Made by a program: the position numbers and the translations under genes
The notes under the pieces: model-generated
What the model was told of the DNA's origin: nothing
What the model saw: the letters and a program-made list of their open reading frames with translations, nothing else
Database searches by the model: none
Source of the DNA: Alphaproteobacteria bacterium
Lineage (GTDB): Bacteria > Pseudomonadota > Alphaproteobacteria > MPNO01 > UBA830
Direction: 5' to 3'
Length of the DNA: 64,000 nucleotides
Assembly (NCBI GenBank): GCA_964291215.2
Contig: OZ219791.1
Location: forward strand, 1,088,001 to 1,152,000
Shown here: positions 47,001 through 64,000 of the stretch, one piece after another
Layout: every line of letters begins with the position of its first letter
How positions within the stretch are numbered: the stretch's first letter is position 1

Positions 47001-47767
47001 TCGACGACGCGCGTGTCATGCTCGACCGCATCGTGACCGAGGGCGCGTTTGCACCGCGGGCCGCCGTCGGCTTCTGGCGCGCTTGCAGCGTGGATGACGA
47101 TATCGCGCTGTTTGCGGACGACAGCCGCGAGAGTCCCATCGCCACGCTGCACACGCTGCGCCAGCAGATGGCGCGCGATCGCGAGCGTCCGAACCACGCG
47201 CTCGCGGACTTCGTCGCGCCGCAGGGATCAGGCGTGGACGACCATGTCGGCGGGTTCGCGGTTACCGTCGGTGATGGCGTGGAGCGGTTGGCGGAAAGCC
47301 ATGAGCGGGCGCACGACGATTACGGCGCCATCATGATCAAGGCCCTTGGCGACCGGCTGGCGGAGGCCTTCGCGGAGTACCTGCATAAGCGCACACGCAA
47401 GGAGTTCTGGGGCTACGCGCCCAGCGAGGCCTTGGCCAACGACGAGTTGATCGGGGAGCGTTACCGCGGCATCAGGCCGGCTCCCGGCTATCCCGCCTGT
47501 CCCGACCACAGCGAGAAGCGCACCATCTTCGCGCTGCTGGGGGCCGAGGCGCACGCTGGCCTGCAACTTACCGAAAGCTGCGCCATGTCGCCGGCGTCGT
47601 CGGTGTGCGGCCTCTATTTCAGCCACCCGGAGAGCACATATTTCGGGGTCGGCAAGCTCGGTCGCGATCAAGTTGCCGACTACGCGCGACGCAAGGGCGC
47701 CTCCCTTGAGGAAACCGAGACATGGCTCTCGCCGAATCTTGCCTACGACCCGGACTCCTCGCTCTGA
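44012..47767 (+). CDS. metH: Cobalamin-dependent methionine synthase
   Basis: '[10 protein letters not shown]', 'GGCCGTTP', '[10 protein letters not shown]', B12 motif '[10 protein letters not shown]', '[12 protein letters not shown]'. Confidence 0.97.
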
Positions 47768-47845: not shown

Positions 47846-48080
47846 CTATCCCGCTGCATCGACACTTTTGTTTACCAACAGCCGCCAGTCCTTCGACTGC
47901 AGCGCGCCCACGGTATCCGCGCCGGGCAGGAGCTTGGTATAGTAGCGCGCAGGCTGTCGCACATGTTCCTTGAGCAGCACCGCCCTGTTTTTGGCTCCGA
48001 CATGCTCCAGGAGATAGCCGAGACGTTGCGCCCAGAGTACTGGTGCGGACTGCGAAGACTCGACGGCTGTTCTCTTCATG
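47846..48080 (-). pseudogene. AbiEi-like (type IV TA) antitoxin C-terminal fragment
   Basis: 'APVLWAQRLGYLLEHVG...WRLLVN'; 5' part missing. Confidence 0.5.
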
Positions 48081-48123
48081 GGGCTTGCACCTTCATCGAG
48101 AGTTTCGAGACGACTCTCCCGCC

Positions 48124-49903
48124 CTAGAGTTTTTTTGAGACACCGCCTAAGTTGATCCAAATGAGGCTATGCATCGGACCGACGAGAGGCATCGCGTGAA
48201 AAAGAGGACTCCGCCCGCTGTTCCGCTCTGCGGTGTGACCCGCCTGATACAGCCCGAGGGCTGGGTTGATTTATGATAACCATGTGAGGAACCCATTGTT
48301 CGGAGTTCGGAAGATGACGATAGCACGGTCTGCTGGCGAGGTCCTTGAGAATCGCGTGACGCTTAAGTGTCTGGACCGGCTGTACCTCAACGCCTATGTG
48401 CCGATGCTGCAGACGGGCGGTGGCGTGGCCTGGTTCTTTCGGGAAGTCAGGGGCAATCCTGTTCCGTCATCGGCCCTGATGGCGCCGATAACACGGCGGT
48501 TTGTGATGCACCTGGAGCGGTTTGCCCGGGACCAAGGTGTCGACCTTGTCAGCTTCAGGAAGGGGGAGCGCAAGGACGATGTGACACAGAAGTATTTTTG
48601 CCTGTGGTCTGGTGGTGAAGGTTTCCTTTACAGTCGGCAAGGCCCAGGAGAAGGCCCGTGTCCTGCGCACGCAGAAGCGCGTTGATTCGGCGACGGGCAG
48701 GGCGTCTTGCGAACTGGTCCACAGCACGGCGATGGTCAATGCCTGGTACATCTACATCGTGGACGACGATTTCGGTCCCTGCTTCATCAAGTTCTGTTCC
48801 TACTTCCCGTACAACGCCAAGCTGTTCCTCAATGGTCACGAATACCTGAAGCTGGGCAAGTGCGGGGTGGCCTTCGAGGCTCTCGACAACGGCATCCTGA
48901 GCTGTGCCGACCCTCGGATCATGCAGGCCGGGGAGATCGATGCCTCACGGTGCGTTGTCCGCAAGTGGACGGCATGGCTTCCCCATCCTTTCACCGACGA
49001 GGACGCGATGAGGGGCATCCGCCTGTCGATTCTCCAAGCGGAGTGTGCGCTCACACAGGTGTTTGACTTGTCCTCTTCACGGCCGGATCGAGAAGATCAT
49101 GCGCGAGAACCTCGACATCGGCCGTCTCGACCATGTGCAGTTGATCTTCAACCGCCGTAGGCGGACCACCTCGCGGTTCAGAATCCGCATTATCACCGAC
49201 GGCGTACAGCCGTCGCTGCATGTGGAGCATTCGCGTATCAAGCAGTACTTCAAGGAAGGCCGTGCCGCCCTGCGAACGGAGATGGTGATCAAAACACCTA
49301 CGACTTCGGTATCAAGCGCAGACTGATCAACCTCGATGACCTCAAGGAGGTCGGCTTCCACACCACCCGACGCCTTCTCGACATCCAGCGTATTAGTCAC
49401 GATTGTCCGATCGGAGCAACCATCCTCGATGCCCTGCATCAATCTGTCGTCGTTAACGACCACCGGGTGTCTGCCCTGCGCTTCGGGGGTCCACGCATCC
49501 AGGCGGTCCTCGCAGCCATCCTGCTGCATGTCTTCCTCCCCATGAGCTTCAACAACCGCTAGATGAGAGAGTTCGTTGCCGATCTCCTGTCGACCGACAC
49601 TTATGGCTCACCACCTATTACCTGCGGCGCCTGCGGGGCATCATTAAGAGGATACCGTCATCGCTATCGTCTGACGCAAACCGGGCAGAGGATCGCTCTT
49701 GCGTATTGCCGCATCCACCGGCAGACACTCAGCCCTGACGGCGGCCTTCGATGACAAGGTGCCGCCCAGGCTCGGACGTATCCTCCACTCGCTCGATCAC
49801 GAGGTCAGCAAACTCTGGGAGGGACAGGCCCTTGCCGCCTGAATATGTCCATGATGAAGACTTGGCTTATCTGTGCACTATTAGCTTCATTCAAGGATTC
49901 TAG
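48124..49903 (+). mobile_element. Degraded unclassified mobile element encoding a Rep-like putative transposase
   Basis: Frameshifted ORF from ATG 48314: 'CLDRLYLNAYVP', 'GERKDD', 'KAQEKA', 'DDDFGPCFIKFCSYFPY', 'IKQYFKEGR..LRTE'; bounded by CTAG-containing inverted repeats at 48120-48137 and 49891-49907. Confidence 0.6.
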
Positions 49904-51794: not shown

Positions 51795-52059
51795 CGTCCC
51801 TTGCTCCTCGCCTTACGATGGGTTCAAACCCAGGCGTCCAGCGAGGGACGTCAAGGGAGGTTGCCAAACTCGGTCGCGGCTCTGTCAAGGCCAAGGTCAA
51901 AACGGCAACCTCCGCGGAGATCGTTTGATCCCCGCTCCCCTGTGCATGTTCGCTCAGGGGAGTGGAATCTCTCTGCAACCATAGCTCTCCCACAGATCCA
52001 CATTTTCCCGCCCCCAACTGCTGTGGATGATTTCATCATCAAGGGGACAAAACCTAGTC
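51795..52059 (-). ncRNA. Candidate IS110 bridge RNA (copy B)
   Basis: Stem GGAGGTTGCC/GGCAACCTCC encloses guides TGACCT and CGACCGAG matching this copy's target; donor loop partly degraded. Confidence 0.7.
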
Positions 52060-53583
52060 GTATCTACTCACCCCTTGTTGGGTTCTGATTGGCCATAGTG
52101 CTCGTTGATGATGTCTGCGGCTTTTCCGTCGAGGGCGATCTGGGTGGCGACGAGTGGGTTGTAGCCGAGTGCGGCCATGGAGGTGAGGTAGCTTGAGCCC
52201 CGGCACCATGCTTTCGCGTGGAGCGGAAGCATCCGGACACCTTGAGCTTTGCCATCCTGATCTTCTGTTCTCCGGCATTGTTGGTGAAGCTGATGTCGGG
52301 GTCGTCTGTGAAGCGCAGGTTTTCGTGTTTCACGAGACGTTCGTGCAGGTTGTGCGCGTCGGACTTGCGTCCACGTTTTCCTTTCGGCGGGATGTCGGGC
52401 AGTTCCCTGGCACCCTGATGGTGCGGTAGCGCTTGCGCACGGCCCGGCGTCGTTCAGGGTTCTGGATGCGCTCTTGTTGACCTTGTGGCAGACCTCGCGG
52501 AGCAGGCCCTTCATCAGTCGCGCGGTAGCCTCGACGACAAAGGTCAGTTCGCGCAGCAGGTGGCTGCCGCACAGCTGGTGGCTACACTGGCCCATGTACG
52601 AGGCCCAGGACGCCCTTGTAGCACGGGCCGATCTCTTGCCCGCGCTTGCGGTGCGGGAACTTGCACGTCAGGGTCCCACGACATGGAGCCACTTACTGTT
52701 GATCCGAAATCGTCGACATCGGGCGTTGCAGGAGGTGCGCCACGGCGGCCTCCTCCCATGACGCATCGTGAAAGCATAGCCGAGGCAGGTTGCCTCGGAG
52801 AGCTTGATGCCGGAGATCGCCTGCACGAACGCGACGGTACGGCGCAGGGGCAGCATTTGGGCGACCAGCAGGTTGATGACGAGGACCTGAATGCCGATGC
52901 CGTACTGCACGGGATGTTGTCGGGGAACTGGCCCCGGGCCTTGCACTTCGGGCATTCCTTGATCTCGGCGCGGCGCTCGACGACCTCGAACACGATGTCG
53001 TGCGGCGCTCCCGATCGACGGGGCCGTCGATGTCAGCGCCGCAGGCGTCGCAGGCCGCGACCGTTTCCTCGACGATGGTCTTGCGCAGGTTGTCGCCCAT
53101 CTGCCGGTTCGGCTTCGGGCCCTTGCCGTTGCTTCCGGCACGCTCTCGTCCTTGTCCGTCTGTGACGGCGGCAGACCGGAGTTCCGGCTCGTGCGTAGTC
53201 TTCTCCAGAAGGACGACGATGAGGATGTCGAGCAGGATGACGAAGACGCGGATCACGGCCTCTTCCGCCACCTTGCCGGCAGCGCCGCGATCCTGGCCGC
53301 TTCGAACTCCTCGCGCGCCGCCCGTCGCTATCACCCGGCCTTGCGCTTCATCAGCGCGCCGCCTCCGAGATGCGTTTCCACATACAGATCATGCGGAGGC
53401 TGGAGCCCCGGAAGCAGCTGGCACAGCCCGCTCGTCGCCTTCGATCCAAAGTAGCCCACTGGCGGTCCCCGTCGTTCTCGATGACCACCACTAAGCGAAT
53501 CGGCATGCAGTGTCAAATCTCCACGAAAACCCGTTCGTTGCTCTACCCCGACATCAAGCCGGAACCAGGGGGTGAGCAGTTAC
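52060..53583 (-). mobile_element. IS66-family non-autonomous element copy 5
   Basis: Same TIRs; 8-bp TSD ACCTAGTC (52052-52059, 53584-53591). Confidence 0.9.
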
Positions 53584-56320: not shown

Positions 56321-56804
56321 GATTTCGGACGCTGGACTGTATCGGCGGATGACCTTGGGAAAATATCCCGTCGCCTGAGCGCAAACCTCTCGGTCAGGGA
56401 GCCGGCCACGCAGGCGCACCACTTCCCTGACCTGCTTCGACGGGAACACGGCGGCTCACGCCACGCCGTCGGGTGCCGTTGCTTCAGGACCGAAGCTCTT
56501 TCACCTCAGACAACCGGGGTCGCACGGCCCTCGGCGAGCATTCGTTCCCTGGCATTCAAGCCTATGGAGCGGGATGGTTCACGCCCGCGCTGCGTCGGAA
56601 GCCACTCCATGGCAAGCCCCCCGGCGGGTTCTGACACCCCCCTCATCCATCGTCTAAAAACACATGGTCACAGCCCATCATGTGTTGCATTTCACTATGG
56701 AACGGGGGCTGGAAAATGGCATGGCGGTGACCAGTTTCGCGTATCGTCGTCATTTAGTTATCTGCAACCACGGACGACTTGTCCGTCAAAGAAAGGTGAT
56801 TTCC

Positions 56805-57440
56805 ATGACATCCTCGTTGTTTTCAGTTGCACGAAATCTGCTCGCAGTCTCAATCGCTTTGATCATGGGCTTGATGGTCGGGGGTTGCGGCGGTGGCGGT
56901 GGCAGCAGTCCTAGGACTGGCGGTGGATTGGGCGACCTCGGAGACTGGAGTAGGGTGACTGCGGGCAGTAGCATGGTGGGATTTCAACATTCGGAATACG
57001 GATTGATGGCTCGGTTTGACGCAGATGGCTCCAATCCGATGATCACTGCTTCTTCACCAGCCCATCAGCCCACAGTCTCGGGAACCTGGTCGGGGCAATG
57101 GTCTGCTGCGTATTCGGACAACGGTATCTTGGACGGAAGAGATAGCGGCGACGCAAGAATAAACGTGACTATAAGAGGGACCGATGTTTCTGCGATGCTT
57201 ACCTATTCCGGTATAGAGATTGAAGGCATACCCTCCACTTTGTCTTCTGCTCGTACTTCCGTTGCAGACGGCAAATTTGAACCTAGCGTAACCGTGTCCG
57301 TTCCGACCGGATCCGGGGGGCGGGTGTCGAGAACCTTCAGCGGTGTCGGGCAGTTTGGCGGCGCCGAACAGCAGGGCGTCGTGGGGTATGTGTCAGGCCA
57401 GGATTTCCGGTCAGTATTCTACGGTGACCGGACGCCGTGA
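56805..57440 (+). CDS. Putative surface lipoprotein with TbpB-like beta-barrel C-terminus
   Basis: AAAGGTGA RBS; signal peptide with lipobox 'VGGC' and Gly linker; C-terminal 'GQFGG...GVVG...FYG'; lower GC than core genes. Confidence 0.7.
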   Translation: MTSSLFSVARNLLAVSIALIMGLMVGGCGGGGGSSPRTGGGLGDLGDWSRVTAGSSMVGFQHSEYGLMARFDADGSNPMITASSPAHQPTVSGTWSGQWSAAYSDNGILDGRDSGDARINVTIRGTDVSAMLTYSGIEIEGIPSTLSSARTSVADGKFEPSVTVSVPTGSGGRVSRTFSGVGQFGGAEQQGVVGYVSGQDFRSVFYGDRTP

Positions 57441-59670: not shown

Positions 59671-59706
59671 GCGTTTCACCGGGGGGCTAGCCCCCCGGTG
59701 AAACGC
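59671..59706. repeat. Perfect 36-bp palindrome centred on CTAG
   Basis: GCGTTTCACCGGGGGG-CTAG-CCCCCCGGTGAAACGC. Confidence 0.9.
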
Positions 59707-59891
59707 GGCGCCATCGTGCCATCCCATGGAGCTGTAAAAATTCATGGAGGAAGCGAATGGACCTGCGACACACTACGGCGATTGCAAACCTGACAGTGCT
59801 CGGAGTAGGATCTTGCGATGTTGAGTGCCCTTCCTCTTCCGACCCCCGTTGTTCGTCGAGAATCTCCGAGAAACGCCGGAGAACCTGCCCG

Positions 59892-60902
59892 ATGAGCTTT
59901 CCGGCGATGCCGCACGATGCGCTGTTCCGGGCGCTGGTCTCCAAACCTGCCCGCGCTGCCGCGCTGCTCACAGAATACCTGCCGCAAGAAGTGGCCGCCC
60001 TCCTCGACCTCAAGGCCCTGCCTGAGGCAGTCGAAGGCAGCTTCATCGACGAGGACGCCACGCGAACCCAGTGTGATGCGCTGTTCCGGGTCAAGCTGAA
60101 GAGCGGGCACGAGGCGCGCCTCTATGTGCTGCTCGAACATAAGAGCCGGGTCGATGCCGACACACCGTTACAACTCCTGAAATACATGGTCAACATCTGG
60201 CGCCAAGAGATCGAGAATGGCGCTGCCGGGGACAGGTTGCCGACGATCATTCCGCTGGTCTTCTACCACGGCCAGGGTCGCTGGACGGCGGCGCGCTCGG
60301 TGCCGGAGATGATCGACGCGCCTGAGGCGCTGGCACCTTTCGTCAGGGAGTTTGCCTATGTGGTGCACGACCTTGGGGAGATCGCACCACGCCGGCTGTC
60401 GATCTCGCCCGAGGTGCGGGCCGGGCTTCTGGCGCTCAGGGTCGTTCATGCCGAGGAGATACCGCCCGATCTTCTGGACGAGATGACGGGCGGGCCGGTT
60501 GCGGGAAGCGCGTTCGAGCGTCATATTGTGCGTTACATTGCCGAGTGCATGAACCTGACGCCGCCTTTGCTGGAGGCGTCGCTGCGCCGGACGAAACCGG
60601 ATCGCTGGGAGGCACTGATGGGAACGGTCGCGCAAGCCTGGATCGAACAGGGAATCGAACGGGGAATCGAACAGGGGATTGAACGAGGCCGGAGCGAGGG
60701 CCGGGAGGAGGGCCGAGAGGAGGGCCGGCAGACCTTGACGGAACTTCTTCTTCGTCAACTGGCGTTGCGCTTCGGTGATGTGCCGGATACGGTTCGCGAG
60801 CAGGTCCGTGGTGCGTCGGCGGCGGAACTGGAGGTCTGGGCGGAGGCGGTGTTGGTGGCAACCAGCCTTGATGAAGTGCTGGCTGTCAGGCCCGGGCGCT
60901 GA
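59892..60902 (+). CDS. Rpn family (YhgA-like) PD-(D/E)XK nuclease with DUF4351-like C-terminus, copy 1 (336 aa)
   Basis: 'HDALFR', 'SFID', 'DALF', 'YVLLEHKS', 'QLLKYM', 'IPLVFYHG', EQG/EEG repeats, 'RQLALRFG'. Confidence 0.9.
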   Translation: MSFPAMPHDALFRALVSKPARAAALLTEYLPQEVAALLDLKALPEAVEGSFIDEDATRTQCDALFRVKLKSGHEARLYVLLEHKSRVDADTPLQLLKYMVNIWRQEIENGAAGDRLPTIIPLVFYHGQGRWTAARSVPEMIDAPEALAPFVREFAYVVHDLGEIAPRRLSISPEVRAGLLALRVVHAEEIPPDLLDEMTGGPVAGSAFERHIVRYIAECMNLTPPLLEASLRRTKPDRWEALMGTVAQAWIEQGIERGIEQGIERGRSEGREEGREEGRQTLTELLLRQLALRFGDVPDTVREQVRGASAAELEVWAEAVLVATSLDEVLAVRPGR

Positions 60903-61166
60903 ATCGGCGCCGTGTACTTGTGTGACACGCGCGACATGACCATTGACTTTGGCGTCCTGAAGAACGCGGACACCGCAGGCTCCGATCTTGAGGCATGTTG
61001 CTCCGGTTGCGGATCGGCTTCGAATATCGGCCTCGAGTCCCTGACATATGTCATGAATCAGGCGCATTTTACATGGGTGCAATATGAAGCTAGAGAAATC
61101 ATATAAACAAGCTATATCAGTGGATTAACGTGTATATCAGCTCGAATTTTTTGGAACTAAGGATTG

Positions 61167-61256
61167 AGCGAATCGGTCTGTAGTGTCAAGTCTCCACGAA
61201 AACCCGTTCGCTGCTCTGCCCCGACATCAAGCGGGAATCAGGGGGTGAGCAGTTAC
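61167..61256 (-). mobile_element. Solo IS66 left end in the Rpn spacer (repeated at 62724-62813)
   Basis: About 90 bp matching the left terminus of IS66 copies 1-5, ending GGGGTGAGCAGTTAC. Confidence 0.85.
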
Positions 61257-61436
61257 CCCGAACGCTTACTCAGAACTACCGCCCGTCATGACGATTCCGG
61301 CCTGTCCCCGCGACAGGCGTCGGCGATTGCAAACCTGACAGTGCTCGGAGTAGGATCTTGCGATGTTGAGTGCCCTTCCTCTTCCGACCCCCGTTGTTCG
61401 TCGAGAATCTCCGAGAAACGCCGGAGAACCTGCCCG

Positions 61437-62459
61437 ATGAGCTTTCCGGCGATGCCGCACGATGCGCTGTTCCGGGCGCTGGTCTCCAAACCTGCCCGCG
61501 CTGCCGCGCTGCTCACAGAATACCTGCCGCAAGAAGTAGCCGCCCTCCTCGACCTCAAGGCCCTGCCTGAGGCAGTCGAGGGCAGCTTCATCGACGAGGA
61601 CGCCACGCGAACCCAGTGCGATGCGCTGTTCCGGGTCAAGCTGAAGAGCGGGCACGAGGCGCGCCTCTATGTGCTGCTCGAACATAAGAGCCGGGTCGAT
61701 GCCGACACACCGTTACAACTCCTGAAATACATGGTCAACATCTGGCGCCAAGAGATCGAGAATGGCGCTGCCGGGGACAGGTTGCCGACGATCATTCCGC
61801 TGGTCTTCTACCACGGCCAGGGGCGCTGGACGGCGGCGCGCTCGGTGCCGGAGATGATCGACGCGCCTGAGGCGCTGGCACCTTTCGTCAGGGAGTTTGC
61901 CTATGTGGTGCACGACCTTGGGGAGATCGCACCACGCCGGCTGTCGATCTCGCCCGAGGTGCGGGCCGGGCTTCTGGCGCTCAGGGCTGTTCATGCCGAG
62001 GAGATACCGCCCGATCTTCTGGACGAGATGACGGGCGGGCCGGTTGCGGGGAGCGCGTTCGAGCGTCATATTGTGCGTTACATTGCCGAGTGCATGAACC
62101 TGACGCCGCCTTTGCTGGAGGCGTCGCTGCGCCGGACGAAACCGGATCGCTGGGAGGCATTGATGGGAACGGTCGCGCAAGCCTGGATCGAACAGGGAAT
62201 CGAACGGGGAATCGAACAGGGGATTGAACGAGGCCGGAGCGAGGGCCGGGAGGAGGGCCGGGAGGAGGGCCGAGAGGAGGGCCGGCGGACCTTGACGGAA
62301 CTTCTTCTTCGTCAACTGGCGTTGCGCTTCGGTGATGTGCCGGATGCGGTTCGCGAGCAGGTCCGTGGTGCGTCGGCGGCGGAACTGGAGGTCTGGGTGG
62401 AGGCGGTGTTGGTGGCGGCCAGCCTTGATGAAGTGCTGGCTGTCAGGCCCGGACGCTGA
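61437..62459 (+). CDS. Rpn family nuclease, copy 2 (340 aa)
   Basis: As copy 1, with one extra REEG repeat. Confidence 0.9.
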   Translation: MSFPAMPHDALFRALVSKPARAAALLTEYLPQEVAALLDLKALPEAVEGSFIDEDATRTQCDALFRVKLKSGHEARLYVLLEHKSRVDADTPLQLLKYMVNIWRQEIENGAAGDRLPTIIPLVFYHGQGRWTAARSVPEMIDAPEALAPFVREFAYVVHDLGEIAPRRLSISPEVRAGLLALRAVHAEEIPPDLLDEMTGGPVAGSAFERHIVRYIAECMNLTPPLLEASLRRTKPDRWEALMGTVAQAWIEQGIERGIEQGIERGRSEGREEGREEGREEGRRTLTELLLRQLALRFGDVPDAVREQVRGASAAELEVWVEAVLVAASLDEVLAVRPGR

Positions 62460-62993
62460 ATCGGCGCCATGTACTTGTGTGACACGCACGACATGACCAT
62501 TGACTTTGGCGTCCTGAAGAACGCGGACACCGCAGGCTCCGATCTTGAGGCATGTTGCTCCGGTTGCGGGTCGGCTTCGAATATCGGCCTCGAGTCCCTG
62601 ACATATGCCATGAATCAGGCGCATTTTACATGGGTGCAATATGAATCTAGAGAAATCATATAAACAAGCTATATCAGTGGATTAACGTGTATATCAGCTC
62701 GAATTTTTTGGAACTAAGGATTGAGCGAATCGGTCTGTAGTGTCAAGTCTCCACGAAAACCCGTTCGCTGCTCTGCCCCGACATCAAGCGGGAATCAGGG
62801 GGTGAGCAGTTACCCCGAACGCTTACTCAGAACTACCGCCCGTCATGACGATTCCGGCCCGTCCCCGCGACAGGCGTCGGCGATTGCAAACCTGACAGTG
62901 CTCGGAGTAGGATCTTGCGATGTTGAGTGCCCTTCCTCTTCCGATCCCTGCTGTTCGTCGAGAATCTCCGAGAAACGCCGGAGAACCTGCCCG

Positions 62994-63968
62994 ATGAGCT
63001 TTCCGGCGATGCCGCACGATGCGCTGTTCCGGGCGCTGGTCTCCAAACCTGCCCGCGCTGCCGCGCTGCTCACAGAATACCTGCCGCAAGAAGTGGCCGC
63101 CCTCCTCGACCTCAAGGCCCTGCCTGAGGCAGTCGAAGGCAGCTTCATCGACGAGGACGCCACGCGAACCCAGTGTGATGCGCTGTTCCGGGTCAAGCTG
63201 AAGAGCGGGCACGAGGCGCGCCTCTATGTGCTGCTCGAACATAAGAGCCGGGTCGATGCCGACACACCGTTACAACTCCTGAAATACATGGTCAACATCT
63301 GGCGCCAAGAGATCGAGAATGGCGCTGCCGGGGACAGGTTGCCGACGATCATTCCGCTGGTCTTCTACCACGGCCAGGGTCGCTGGACGGCGGCGCGCTC
63401 GGTGCCGGAGATGATCGACGCGCCCGAGGCGCTGGCACCTTTCGTCAGGGAGTTTGCCTATGTGGTGCACGACCTTGGGGAGATCGCACCACGCCGGCTG
63501 TCGGTCTCGCCCGAGGTGCGGGCCGGGCTTCTGGCGCTCAGGGCTGTTTATGCCGAGGAGATACCGCCCGATCTTCTGGACGAGATGACGGGCGGGCCGG
63601 TTGCGGGAAGCGCGTTCGAGCGTCATATTGTGCGTTACATTGCCGAGTGCATGAACCTGACGCCGCCTTTGCTGGAGGCGTCGCTGCGCCGGACGAAACC
63701 GGATTGCTGGGAGGCACTGATGGGAACGGTCGCGCAAGCCTGGATCGAACAGGGAATCGAACGGGGCCGGAGCGAGGGCCGGGAGGAGGGCCGGCGGACC
63801 TTGACGGAACTTCTTCTTCGTCAACTGGCGTTGCGCTTCGGTGATGTGCCGGATGCGGTTCGCGAGCAGGTCCGTGGCGCGTCGGCGGCGGAACTGGAGG
63901 TCTGGGCGGAGGCGGTGCTGATGGCAACCAGCCTTGATGAAGTGCTGGCTGTCAGGCCCGGGCGCTGA
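62994..63968 (+). CDS. Rpn family nuclease, copy 3 (324 aa)
   Basis: As copy 1, with three fewer 4-aa repeats. Confidence 0.9.
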   Translation: MSFPAMPHDALFRALVSKPARAAALLTEYLPQEVAALLDLKALPEAVEGSFIDEDATRTQCDALFRVKLKSGHEARLYVLLEHKSRVDADTPLQLLKYMVNIWRQEIENGAAGDRLPTIIPLVFYHGQGRWTAARSVPEMIDAPEALAPFVREFAYVVHDLGEIAPRRLSVSPEVRAGLLALRAVYAEEIPPDLLDEMTGGPVAGSAFERHIVRYIAECMNLTPPLLEASLRRTKPDCWEALMGTVAQAWIEQGIERGRSEGREEGRRTLTELLLRQLALRFGDVPDAVREQVRGASAAELEVWAEAVLMATSLDEVLAVRPGR

Positions 63969-64000
63969 ATCGGCGCCATGTACTTGCGTGACACGCGCGA

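Follow-up and report, generated by a model that had tools for sequence, protein, structure and literature searches.

The closest described counterparts of the genes treated here, RpnA-E and RpnP2 of Escherichia coli (PMC10400941; PMC5350276), combine a PF04754 nuclease domain having conserved catalytic acids with a DUF4351-type C-terminus, and carry an internal Shine–Dalgarno (SD) sequence and start codon as well as four-residue repeats of variable number which begin 8–20 residues after the small-protein Met, within helix 1. In RpnA the internal start is M244, which was experimentally tested in E. coli as the start of RpnA-S, and in RpnC one extra repeat abolishes neutralisation (Zhong 2023, PMC10400941). 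Arrays of rpn genes in tandem, variation of their repeats and a specificity that depends on repeat number have already been published (Zhong 2023, PMC10400941; Koonin 2023), and repeat variation was proposed to prevent inhibition in trans (Koonin 2023). Phage protection has been shown for E. coli RpnP2 only, and Zhong et al. concluded that the family is not an autonomous transposase (PMC10400941).

The array that we describe here is a further example of this anti-phage Rpn toxin–antitoxin family, in which three copies with differing repeat number lie in one genome at ~98% DNA identity. In our judgment it is probably a triplicated Rpn (YhgA-like) gene, each copy of which likely encodes a toxic nuclease together with a neutralising internal-start protein, brought about by ordinary local duplication and held under purifying selection.

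Organization of the array and its support in short reads

In the window, by which we mean the whole stretch of 64,000 nucleotides analysed, three uninterrupted rpn ORFs are arranged head-to-tail on the forward strand with stops at 60902, 62459 and 63968, and their DNA identity is 97.8–98.7%. The likely starts of the full-length proteins (RpnL) are the ATGs at 59892, 61437 and 62994 (MSFPAM...), giving 336, 340 and 324 aa; the SD value is −6.6 for the MSFPAM ATG against −1.9 for the next ATG. A three-way alignment delimits the first repeat block A (59776..61046, forward strand), which consists of a promoter-like region, rpn copy 1 (59892..60902) and ~140 bp 3′ of it, and adjoins on its left side an IS-end repeat, the flank matching a multi-copy repeat. 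It is followed by spacer B1 (61047..61320), made of the AT-rich end of a ~18-copy repeat, an 88-bp end of an IS66-derived element (61169–61256) and the final codons of an upstream ORF, which are common to the paralogues. Copy 2 (61437..62459, forward) is separated from copy 3 (62994..63968, forward) by spacer B2 (62604..62877), which in the alignment and in short-read contigs differs from B1 at 3 positions and has its IS66-like end at 62726–62813. The repeat unit continues to position 64112, just outside the window, where the third block A and the array end. A promoter-like motif TTGCAA-N18-TAGGAT may lie upstream of each copy (59782..59811, 61327–61356 and 62884–62913, forward strand); this pattern, picked post hoc, occurs in 12 of the 27 upstream regions examined, among them all three copies of the array and seven of nine paralogues. 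A stock sigma-70 scan returned 0 promoter sites and the terminator predictions were no better than chance level.

Direct head-to-tail duplication is shared with the tandem array of Parabacteroides sp. Marseille and, as far as the legend of Fig. S1B in Zhong 2023 describes the latter, both lack terminal inverted repeats and target-site duplications, whereas the unit here carries IS-end debris as spacer. Between metH, which ends at 47767, and ahcY (64755) a codon-model gene caller retained only the three rpn ORFs and one IS110 remnant, and most of this interval matches repeats with 40–220 genome copies. The initial annotation, which had read three intact, near-identical Rpn genes amid otherwise decayed DNA, was thus borne out.

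It might be argued that one or two genes were expanded to three during assembly or polishing. No listed short-read contig covers the whole array, the runs belong to a single study, possibly with the source sample among them, and consensus errors can also give mosaic alleles; a contig at the gene-to-spacer junction reaches 30 nt on one side, one short of the bridging rule applied. On the other hand, the copies differ at 27 sites and by in-frame repeat changes with no frameshift, X1 and X2 contigs divide exactly where block A ends, one branch entering the spacer and the other the right flank, and one X2 contig leads out of the spacer to the start of the following rpn. The depth of the spacer contig, although it is no copy number, was 72 and 103 as compared to 35–57 for single-copy pieces. 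An artefact is thus highly improbable, and the forks, the spacer-to-rpn contig and the differing sites argue for a real array.

Family membership and catalytic residues

All three copies matched PF04754 (Transposase_31) at 157 bits, the Pfam gathering cut-off being 21, with E about 5e-46 (4.9e-46 for copy 1), and DUF4351 (PF14261) exceeded its cut-off in all three RpnL and in the RpnS of copy 1, which upholds the original assignment to the Rpn family. The scores to the NCBIfam model TIGR01784 (43.7, 45.6 and 39.5 bits; E 3e-11 to 6e-10) fell below its curated cut-off of 52.1, which lowers the case for membership of that model and leaves membership of PF04754 untouched. Over the first 123 aligned residues, i.e., the nuclease core, identity to RpnA is only 33%, and it is from such E. 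coli homologues that translation, toxicity and phage protection are predicted here. D11, D63 and E82 of RpnA align with D9, D62 and E82 of the array RpnL, and among 123 homologues (those of 150 cluster representatives having 290–370 aa) D62 is conserved in 123, E82 in 119 and D9 in 115. The PD-(D/E)XK core of the array proteins is completed by K84 and Q94, in place of Q84 and R94 in RpnA. As the RpnA Q84K mutant lost all activity, Lys at position 84 could mean that the array protein is non-toxic; K84/Q94 is a covarying pair and the majority pairing (95/123 homologues), Q84/R94 being found in 21. By analogy with E. coli Rpn, the three full-length proteins likely act as toxic DNA nucleases of the PD-(D/E)XK type. 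In PDB sequence searches RpnL had no match at E≤1 and RpnS chance matches only, Foldseek gave no match at E≤0.001, its weak RpnL matches including several PD-(D/E)XK nucleases, and PADLOC had no model matching Rpn itself.

The internal start and the predicted RpnS

Each copy has GGGAGG and, after a gap of 5 nt, an in-frame ATG (60618, 62163 and 63720), which would give small C-terminal proteins of 94, 98 and 82 aa, as against 49 aa for RpnA-S; in copy 1 the GGAGG is at 60608 and the SD-to-stop stretch occupies 60608..60902 (forward), with the repeats at 60642–60725. The SD, internal ATGs and protein lengths first annotated, together with 7, 8 and 4 four-residue repeats, were confirmed in the sequence. 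Pairing of the internal SD with the 16S tail of the same genome amounts to −10.2 kcal/mol, a value beyond chance level that is equalled by 1.3% of 16,832 internal in-frame ATGs. M243 of the array protein shares an alignment column with RpnA M244, and within 2 columns of this position 101 of the 123 homologues have M, 19 have V and 3 have neither; the comparison Met columns M99, M140 and M198 have M in 58, 35 and 6 of the same homologues. In two homologues of 38% identity GTG replaces ATG and the GGAGG is kept, though Trp is changed to Leu or Met. Stand-alone small copies, which occur in L008, L039 and L043, begin at the same Met.

The internal SD-ATG could instead be an incidental by-product of the W-E-A-L-M codons, since TGG-GAG-G makes GGAGG automatically, or the full-length protein could be non-toxic, and either way there would be no toxin–antitoxin pair. 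A codon test did not discriminate, because the SD Glu codon was GAG in 33/33 sequences but GAG was equally fixed in four of the 11 further columns with conserved Glu. An incidental origin is, however, at odds with the ATG to GTG swaps with SD kept, with the stand-alone small genes which begin there and with the alignment to the tested RpnA-S start, and we regard this alternative as very improbable. The intragenic RpnS-type start initially put forward is supported, and because the ATG aligns with the RpnA-S start, is GTG in distant homologues and accompanies retained catalytic acids, each copy likely encodes an RpnL/RpnS toxin–antitoxin pair.

The AlphaFold2 model of RpnS (pLDDT 88) places the repeats, which begin at RpnS residue 9 and hence 8 residues after its Met, within one helix (residues 4–52), followed by three short helices; as in the E. 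coli proteins, the repeats are predicted to lengthen helix 1. The predicted RpnL–RpnS binding score was 0.57 (best control 0.00), a weak score for binding: the mark is reached by 116 of 157 solved pairs and 2 of 215 mismatched pairs, and among the pairs reaching it 18 solved pairs and both mismatches score ≤0.60. At least 98% of contacts agreed between the prediction runs and partner pLDDT was at least 86. With VIA-align the highest Z for RpnS, 7.0, was to helical bundles of unrelated proteins, and PDB 7TH0 (RpnA-S) did not appear among the listed matches, whether of the sequence, the Foldseek or the VIA-align search. By analogy with E. coli Rpn, translation from the conserved internal start likely gives a short C-terminal polypeptide which would bind RpnL and neutralise it. 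RpnS may dimerise via its long first helix and cap RpnL; the repeat number may set the helix length and therefore partner specificity, and release of RpnL on phage infection could result in an abortive-type defence.

Divergence, recombination and repeat number among the copies

None of the nine amino-acid substitutions among the copies precedes residue 171 of the 336, and residues 1–170 show 5 synonymous and 0 non-synonymous differences. The initial annotation had held that all differences fall in the C-terminal half and that the nuclease region is invariant; the first part stood, but since four of the nine substitutions precede RpnS, three of these inside the PF04754 match, only the PD-(D/E)XK core is invariant. 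The contrast between the two halves is weak (Fisher p=0.038, with the boundary picked after seeing the data) and was absent among wider homologues. dN/dS was 0.2–0.56 in the array and flat at 0.22–0.25 across 16 wider homologues; neither the C-terminal module nor RpnS showed positive selection, dN/dS remaining <1 in each of the four regions and at each of the four depths examined, with low power from three copies. Derived alleles are common to each of the three copy pairs (7, 6 and 3 sites), so that no single tree explains the copies, which carry mosaic alleles.

The repeat counts are composed of (IEQG-IERG) ×2, 2 and 1, RSEG, and REEG ×2, 3 and 1, and change in slippage-like 12/24-bp steps. 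They were not over-dispersed: three distinct counts of three come up in random draws with p=0.65, the seven intact copies of the genome have only 4 distinct counts (p=0.94), and over-dispersion was likewise unsupported in 8 Binatia copies (p=0.09).

We argue that the array most likely arose when a gene was duplicated locally in the ordinary way, at a hotspot crowded with IS debris, that recombination among the copies and slippage of the 12/24-bp unit would have come afterwards, and that purifying selection probably maintains the proteins, with no array-specific sign of diversifying selection. Purely neutral amplification would not require selection on all three copies, but the 0 amino-acid changes versus 5 synonymous ones in residues 1–170 fit such selection.

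Alternatively, phage selection may keep and reshape the array, the repeat number giving each copy a distinct specificity or trigger. In favour of this, the three copies are intact where other genes of the interval have decayed, the mosaic alleles imply recombination under way, and the proposal that repeat variation prevents inhibition in trans would apply; the AbiEi relic upstream of the array, the intact AbiE pair of a congener and the defence genes near one paralogue, described below, would also agree with it. But dN/dS is <1 throughout, the repeat counts are random-like, the genome has another tandem pair, which is doubly dead, and copy-number variation does not emerge from the short-read contigs, whose depth is no copy number, which makes this alternative unlikely. 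Poxvirus-style gene accordions and bacterial tandem amplification involve tandem copies with recombination among them; the array is like them in its tandem copies with signs of recombination, and unlike them in that copy-number change and positive selection are absent from our findings. Of the accordion-like defence array diversifying its antitoxin/sensor module by slippage, as initially annotated, the array and the slippage-like steps were retained, whereas the diversification was not, given dN/dS <1, counts that are not over-dispersed and dead copies which also multiply. The sensor role is at most conjectural. A bolder version, which we hold to be doubtful, would be an actively recombining defence accordion in which 12/24-bp slippage re-tunes each toxin–antitoxin lock, leaving three insulated nucleases with different phage triggers or in mutual addiction, within an Rpn lineage that jumps between phyla, in Binatia as cargo of a non-autonomous composite transposon formed by two inverted IS630 ends.

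Differing repeat numbers could also block cross-neutralisation and let the array persist without host benefit; as neighbours could not neutralise each other, recombination that removed a copy would free the corresponding toxin of its antidote. Such selfish addiction accords with the effect of one extra repeat in E. coli RpnC, with three array counts which are all different, and with an RpnS frame that remains open in four out of six broken paralogues with a preserved 3′ part, the usual order of toxin–antitoxin decay. We consider it improbable, as a frameshift in the nuclease would be a cost-free escape and has already happened in other copies, and the counts are not over-dispersed. Identical nuclease cores with 7, 8 and 4 repeats in one genome are a natural experiment for cross-neutralisation, suited to testing the repeat-number specificity rule outside E. 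coli as well as the insulation between co-resident copies suggested by Koonin.

Genomic context, paralogues and homologues elsewhere

Outside the array, ~11.6 kb upstream, a C-terminal relic of an AbiEi antitoxin gene is present where the metH–ahcY interval has its left edge, at 47846..48160 on the reverse strand (PADLOC AbiEi E=2.4e-10), 69% identical over 85 aa to the intact AbiEi of the congener G001, which has an intact AbiEi/AbiEii pair in the same interval; here, we found no defence gene in this interval that is intact. One rpn paralogue sits between tra genes and DndB/SspD. The genome holds 14 rpn copies, seven of them broken, including the second tandem pair. One 8-bp frameshift is common to 5 dead copies, two of which are tandem; in a tree of 11 paralogues, drawn without C2:3154k and short fragments, the four included copies with the 8-bp deletion were not a supported clade.

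The number of copies in the genome, and homologues of 70–85% identity in MAGs of Alphaproteobacteria, Gammaproteobacteria and Binatia when four congeners have rpn homologues of only 28–39%, could point to Rpn being an autonomous transposase (ISNCY/‘Transposase_31’), with the copies as its transposition products. But the ends of homology differ between paralogues, no inverted repeats bounding rpn were among those listed for the 4 regions scanned, and the defined ends seen in Binatia belong to IS630; together with the conclusion of Zhong et al. for the family, this makes a transposase highly improbable.

In a Binatia MAG an rpn homologue lies between inverted IS630 ends at 9 sites. Among titles and the beginnings of abstracts, with few subscription papers covered, we found no paper on rpn carried by IS630 ends. 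An rpn gene between inverted IS630 ends is a concrete vehicle for the ‘hitchhiking’ inferred by Zhong et al.

The rpn array in its interval

At the right end of the window three uninterrupted rpn open reading frames, all on the forward strand and ending at 60902, 62459 and 63968, are arranged as A-B-A-B-A, where A is an rpn-bearing block of ~1.27 kb (59776-61046, 61321-62603 and 62878-64112 by three-way alignment, the third ending outside the window; pairwise identity 97.8-98.7%) and B a spacer of 274 bp made up of IS-end debris. For copy 1 the full-length protein, RpnL, likely starts at ATG 59892, 15 nt 5' of MPHD, as this start has the better Shine-Dalgarno pairing (-6.6 kcal/mol vs -1.9 for the alternative) and agrees with the VSLPATPHD starts of paralogues. 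Between metH (end 47767) and ahcY (64755) a codon-model gene caller yielded nothing but the three rpn genes and a remnant of IS110, the greater part of this sequence matching repeats with 40-220 genome copies. This bears out the initial annotation of three intact genes in decayed surroundings. The tail of the ORF upstream of rpn is presumably that of an integrase. A perfect 18-bp inverted repeat (hairpin, 59671-59706) was also seen inside the multi-copy repeat end adjoining copy 1, as was a single-copy 258-aa ORF (56664-57440, + strand) surrounded by IS debris, which matched nothing in Pfam or PADLOC and whose GGC-GGGGG stretch is presumably a lipoprotein-like motif.

Such an array could be an assembly artefact. 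Three runs of one study, the source sample possibly among them, include short-read contigs that cover part of the stretch, and no contig among these crosses the whole array. However, contigs of runs X1 and X2 fork where block A ends, with an overlap of 30 letters (one below the bridging rule). One branch leads into the spacer (X1, 240 bp, 0 differences, depth 72; X2, 467 bp, depth 103, extending to the start of the next rpn gene), and another into the unique right flank (depth 49 and 36, against 35-57 for the remaining single-copy pieces, depth not being copy number). Because of these forks, the 27 point differences among the copies and length changes that are all in-frame, an artefact is unlikely; the tandem array is real, as initially annotated.

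Rpn family membership and the internal start

All three proteins matched Pfam PF04754 (E ~5e-46) and DUF4351 above cut-offs, while a TIGR01784 match scored under its cut-off. Escherichia coli RpnA is 33% identical to the array protein over 123 residues; its D11, D63 and E82 correspond in the alignment to D9, D62 and E82, and its M244, the experimentally tested RpnA-S start in the available text of Zhong et al. 2023 (PMC10400941), shares a column with M243, the Met at 60618. The two differ at residues 84 and 94, Q84/R94 in RpnA vs K84/Q94 here (copy 1 codons within 60141-60173), and RpnA Q84K is inactive in the available text of Kingston et al. 2017 (PMC5350276), from which the catalytic mutants come. 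These residues covary across the family: of 150 cluster representatives the 123 with a length of 290-370 aa were compared (the other 27 being dropped), and 95 of these have K84/Q94 and 21 Q84/R94. Lys is therefore the normal partner of Gln94, and this covariation may be the reason for the inactivity of RpnA Q84K.

Inside each ORF GGGAGG is followed, after five bases, by an in-frame ATG (60618, 62163 and 63720) from which a small C-terminal product, RpnS, of 94, 98 and 82 aa is predicted. The four-residue units after MGTVAQAW number 7, 8 and 4, comprising a 24-bp IEQG-IERG pair (two, two and one), one RSEG and a 12-bp REEG unit (two, three and one); these starts, lengths and repeat numbers are as the initial annotation had read them. 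Pairing of the internal Shine-Dalgarno with the genome's own 16S tail (-10.2 kcal/mol) is reached by 1.3% of 16,832 internal in-frame ATGs. In the 55 homologue alignments covering the site, five of them loci fetched twice, the codon is ATG in 49, GTG in two (38% identical proteins, which keep GGAGG despite a Trp replacement), ATG one to three codons on in three and ATC in one, a broken copy. For 120 of the 123 representatives an M or V is found no more than two columns from the RpnS Met, and stand-alone small copies begin at this Met in three fetched loci (L008, L039 and L043). A codon-level test did not discriminate: the Glu codon within the Shine-Dalgarno is GAG in 33 of 33 sequences, but 4 of 11 other conserved Glu columns are likewise invariably GAG.

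AlphaFold2 models (pLDDT 83 for RpnL, 88 for RpnS) place the repeats in a single long helix, after which come three short helices, an arrangement like that in the available text of Zhong et al. Fold searches gave no clear relative: Foldseek had no match at E<=0.001, although several PD-(D/E)XK nucleases were among its weak RpnL matches, and the best VIA-align Z for RpnS was 7.0, to helical proteins that are unrelated. The RpnL-RpnS complex prediction scored 0.57 (best control 0.00; contacts agreeing at least 98%; partner pLDDT at least 86), which hints at binding, passes this low being given by 18 of 157 solved pairs and by both passing mismatches of 215 mismatched pairs. Zhong et al. further describe internal starts, RpnL toxicity, cognate-specific neutralisation that is lost on adding one repeat, varying four-residue repeat number, direct duplication as the origin of tandem arrays, rpn genes that hitchhike on mobile elements, and a protective RpnP2. 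The array is very likely an RpnL/RpnS triplication of this already published toxin-antitoxin kind; as in E. coli, RpnS would be translated, RpnL toxic and phage defence conferred.

Diversification and spread of rpn

In a commentary (Koonin, PMC10400984) repeat variation was proposed to block in-trans inhibition between co-resident copies, and the initial annotation had supposed an accordion-like defence array that diversifies its antitoxin/sensor module by slippage. All three copies are intact, and the contrast it drew between protein halves was recovered, residues 1-170 having five synonymous and no replacement differences and later residues six and nine (p=0.038, with a post hoc boundary). 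Each pairing of copies has derived alleles in common (7, 6 and 3 sites), evidence of recombination or conversion among them. The metH-ahcY interval moreover looks like a toxin-antitoxin hotspot, since in a congener (G001, AhcY 97% identical) it spans only 3.5 kb with intact AbiEi/AbiEii and an NTP_transf_8 gene, without rpn, and the window retains an AbiEi C-terminal relic (47846-48160, - strand; paired entry L074:2544-4171). Against adaptation, dN/dS is 0-0.56 within the array, 0.25-0.47 among five intact genome copies, 0-0.47 among eight Binatia copies and flat at 0.22-0.25 across 16 wider homologues, repeat counts are not over-dispersed, and dead copies multiply too. An adaptive accordion or sensor role is unproven and partly contradicted, tests with three copies having low power.

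The source genome holds 14 rpn copies, a split one counted once, seven intact and seven broken. Five dispersed paralogues (at C1:2347k, C1:2494k, C2:2740k, C2:2741k and C2:3154k), two of them a tandem pair, have in common an 8-bp frameshifting deletion 5' of the RpnS start. Given the broken copies, the shared frameshift and the dead pair, rpn multiplies in this genome whether functional or not; as the four deletion copies included in the paralogue tree formed no supported clade, ectopic conversion or copying is suggested to have spread the dead allele. One intact paralogue (L060, C1:864000-877000) lies between tra genes and DndB/SspD homologues; ahead of the latter there are also an S24 regulator and an ORF of 809 aa for which neither Pfam nor PADLOC gave a match.

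MAGs with the titles Alphaproteobacteria, Defluviicoccus, Rhodospirillales, Gammaproteobacteria and Candidatus Binatia contain homologues of 70-85% identity, whereas four congeners have relatives of 28-39% only, which suggests horizontal transfer. Around the source-genome copies homology ends differ from copy to copy, and no inverted repeats bounding the gene were among those listed for four scanned regions. In Candidatus Binatia OZ219754.1, at nine of 11 loci examined (L022-L047, e.g. L023:5836-7496), an rpn homologue ~80% identical, with about 3 to 12 repeats, lies in a 1.6-1.7 kb element bordered on both sides by the 3' end of an IS630 (~150 bp each; Pfam DDE_3) in inverted orientation. Eight of these elements have TA at their left end and six at their right; this is apparently a non-autonomous composite transposon spreading the Rpn module.

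Separately, an IS66-derived element of ~1.5 kb occurs at about 52050-53520, as 88-bp ends at 61169-61256 and 62726-62813, and genome-wide, with 226 left ends, a second end within 2.6 kb in 121 and 8-bp target duplications in 81. A short YFGSK...ETHLGGG stub, which we take to resemble an adenine methyltransferase N-terminus, is encoded by 189 of these elements. The crude coding fraction of the genome is only ~62%; several IS families of 40-220 copies are full of small deletions, and housekeeping genes are intact.
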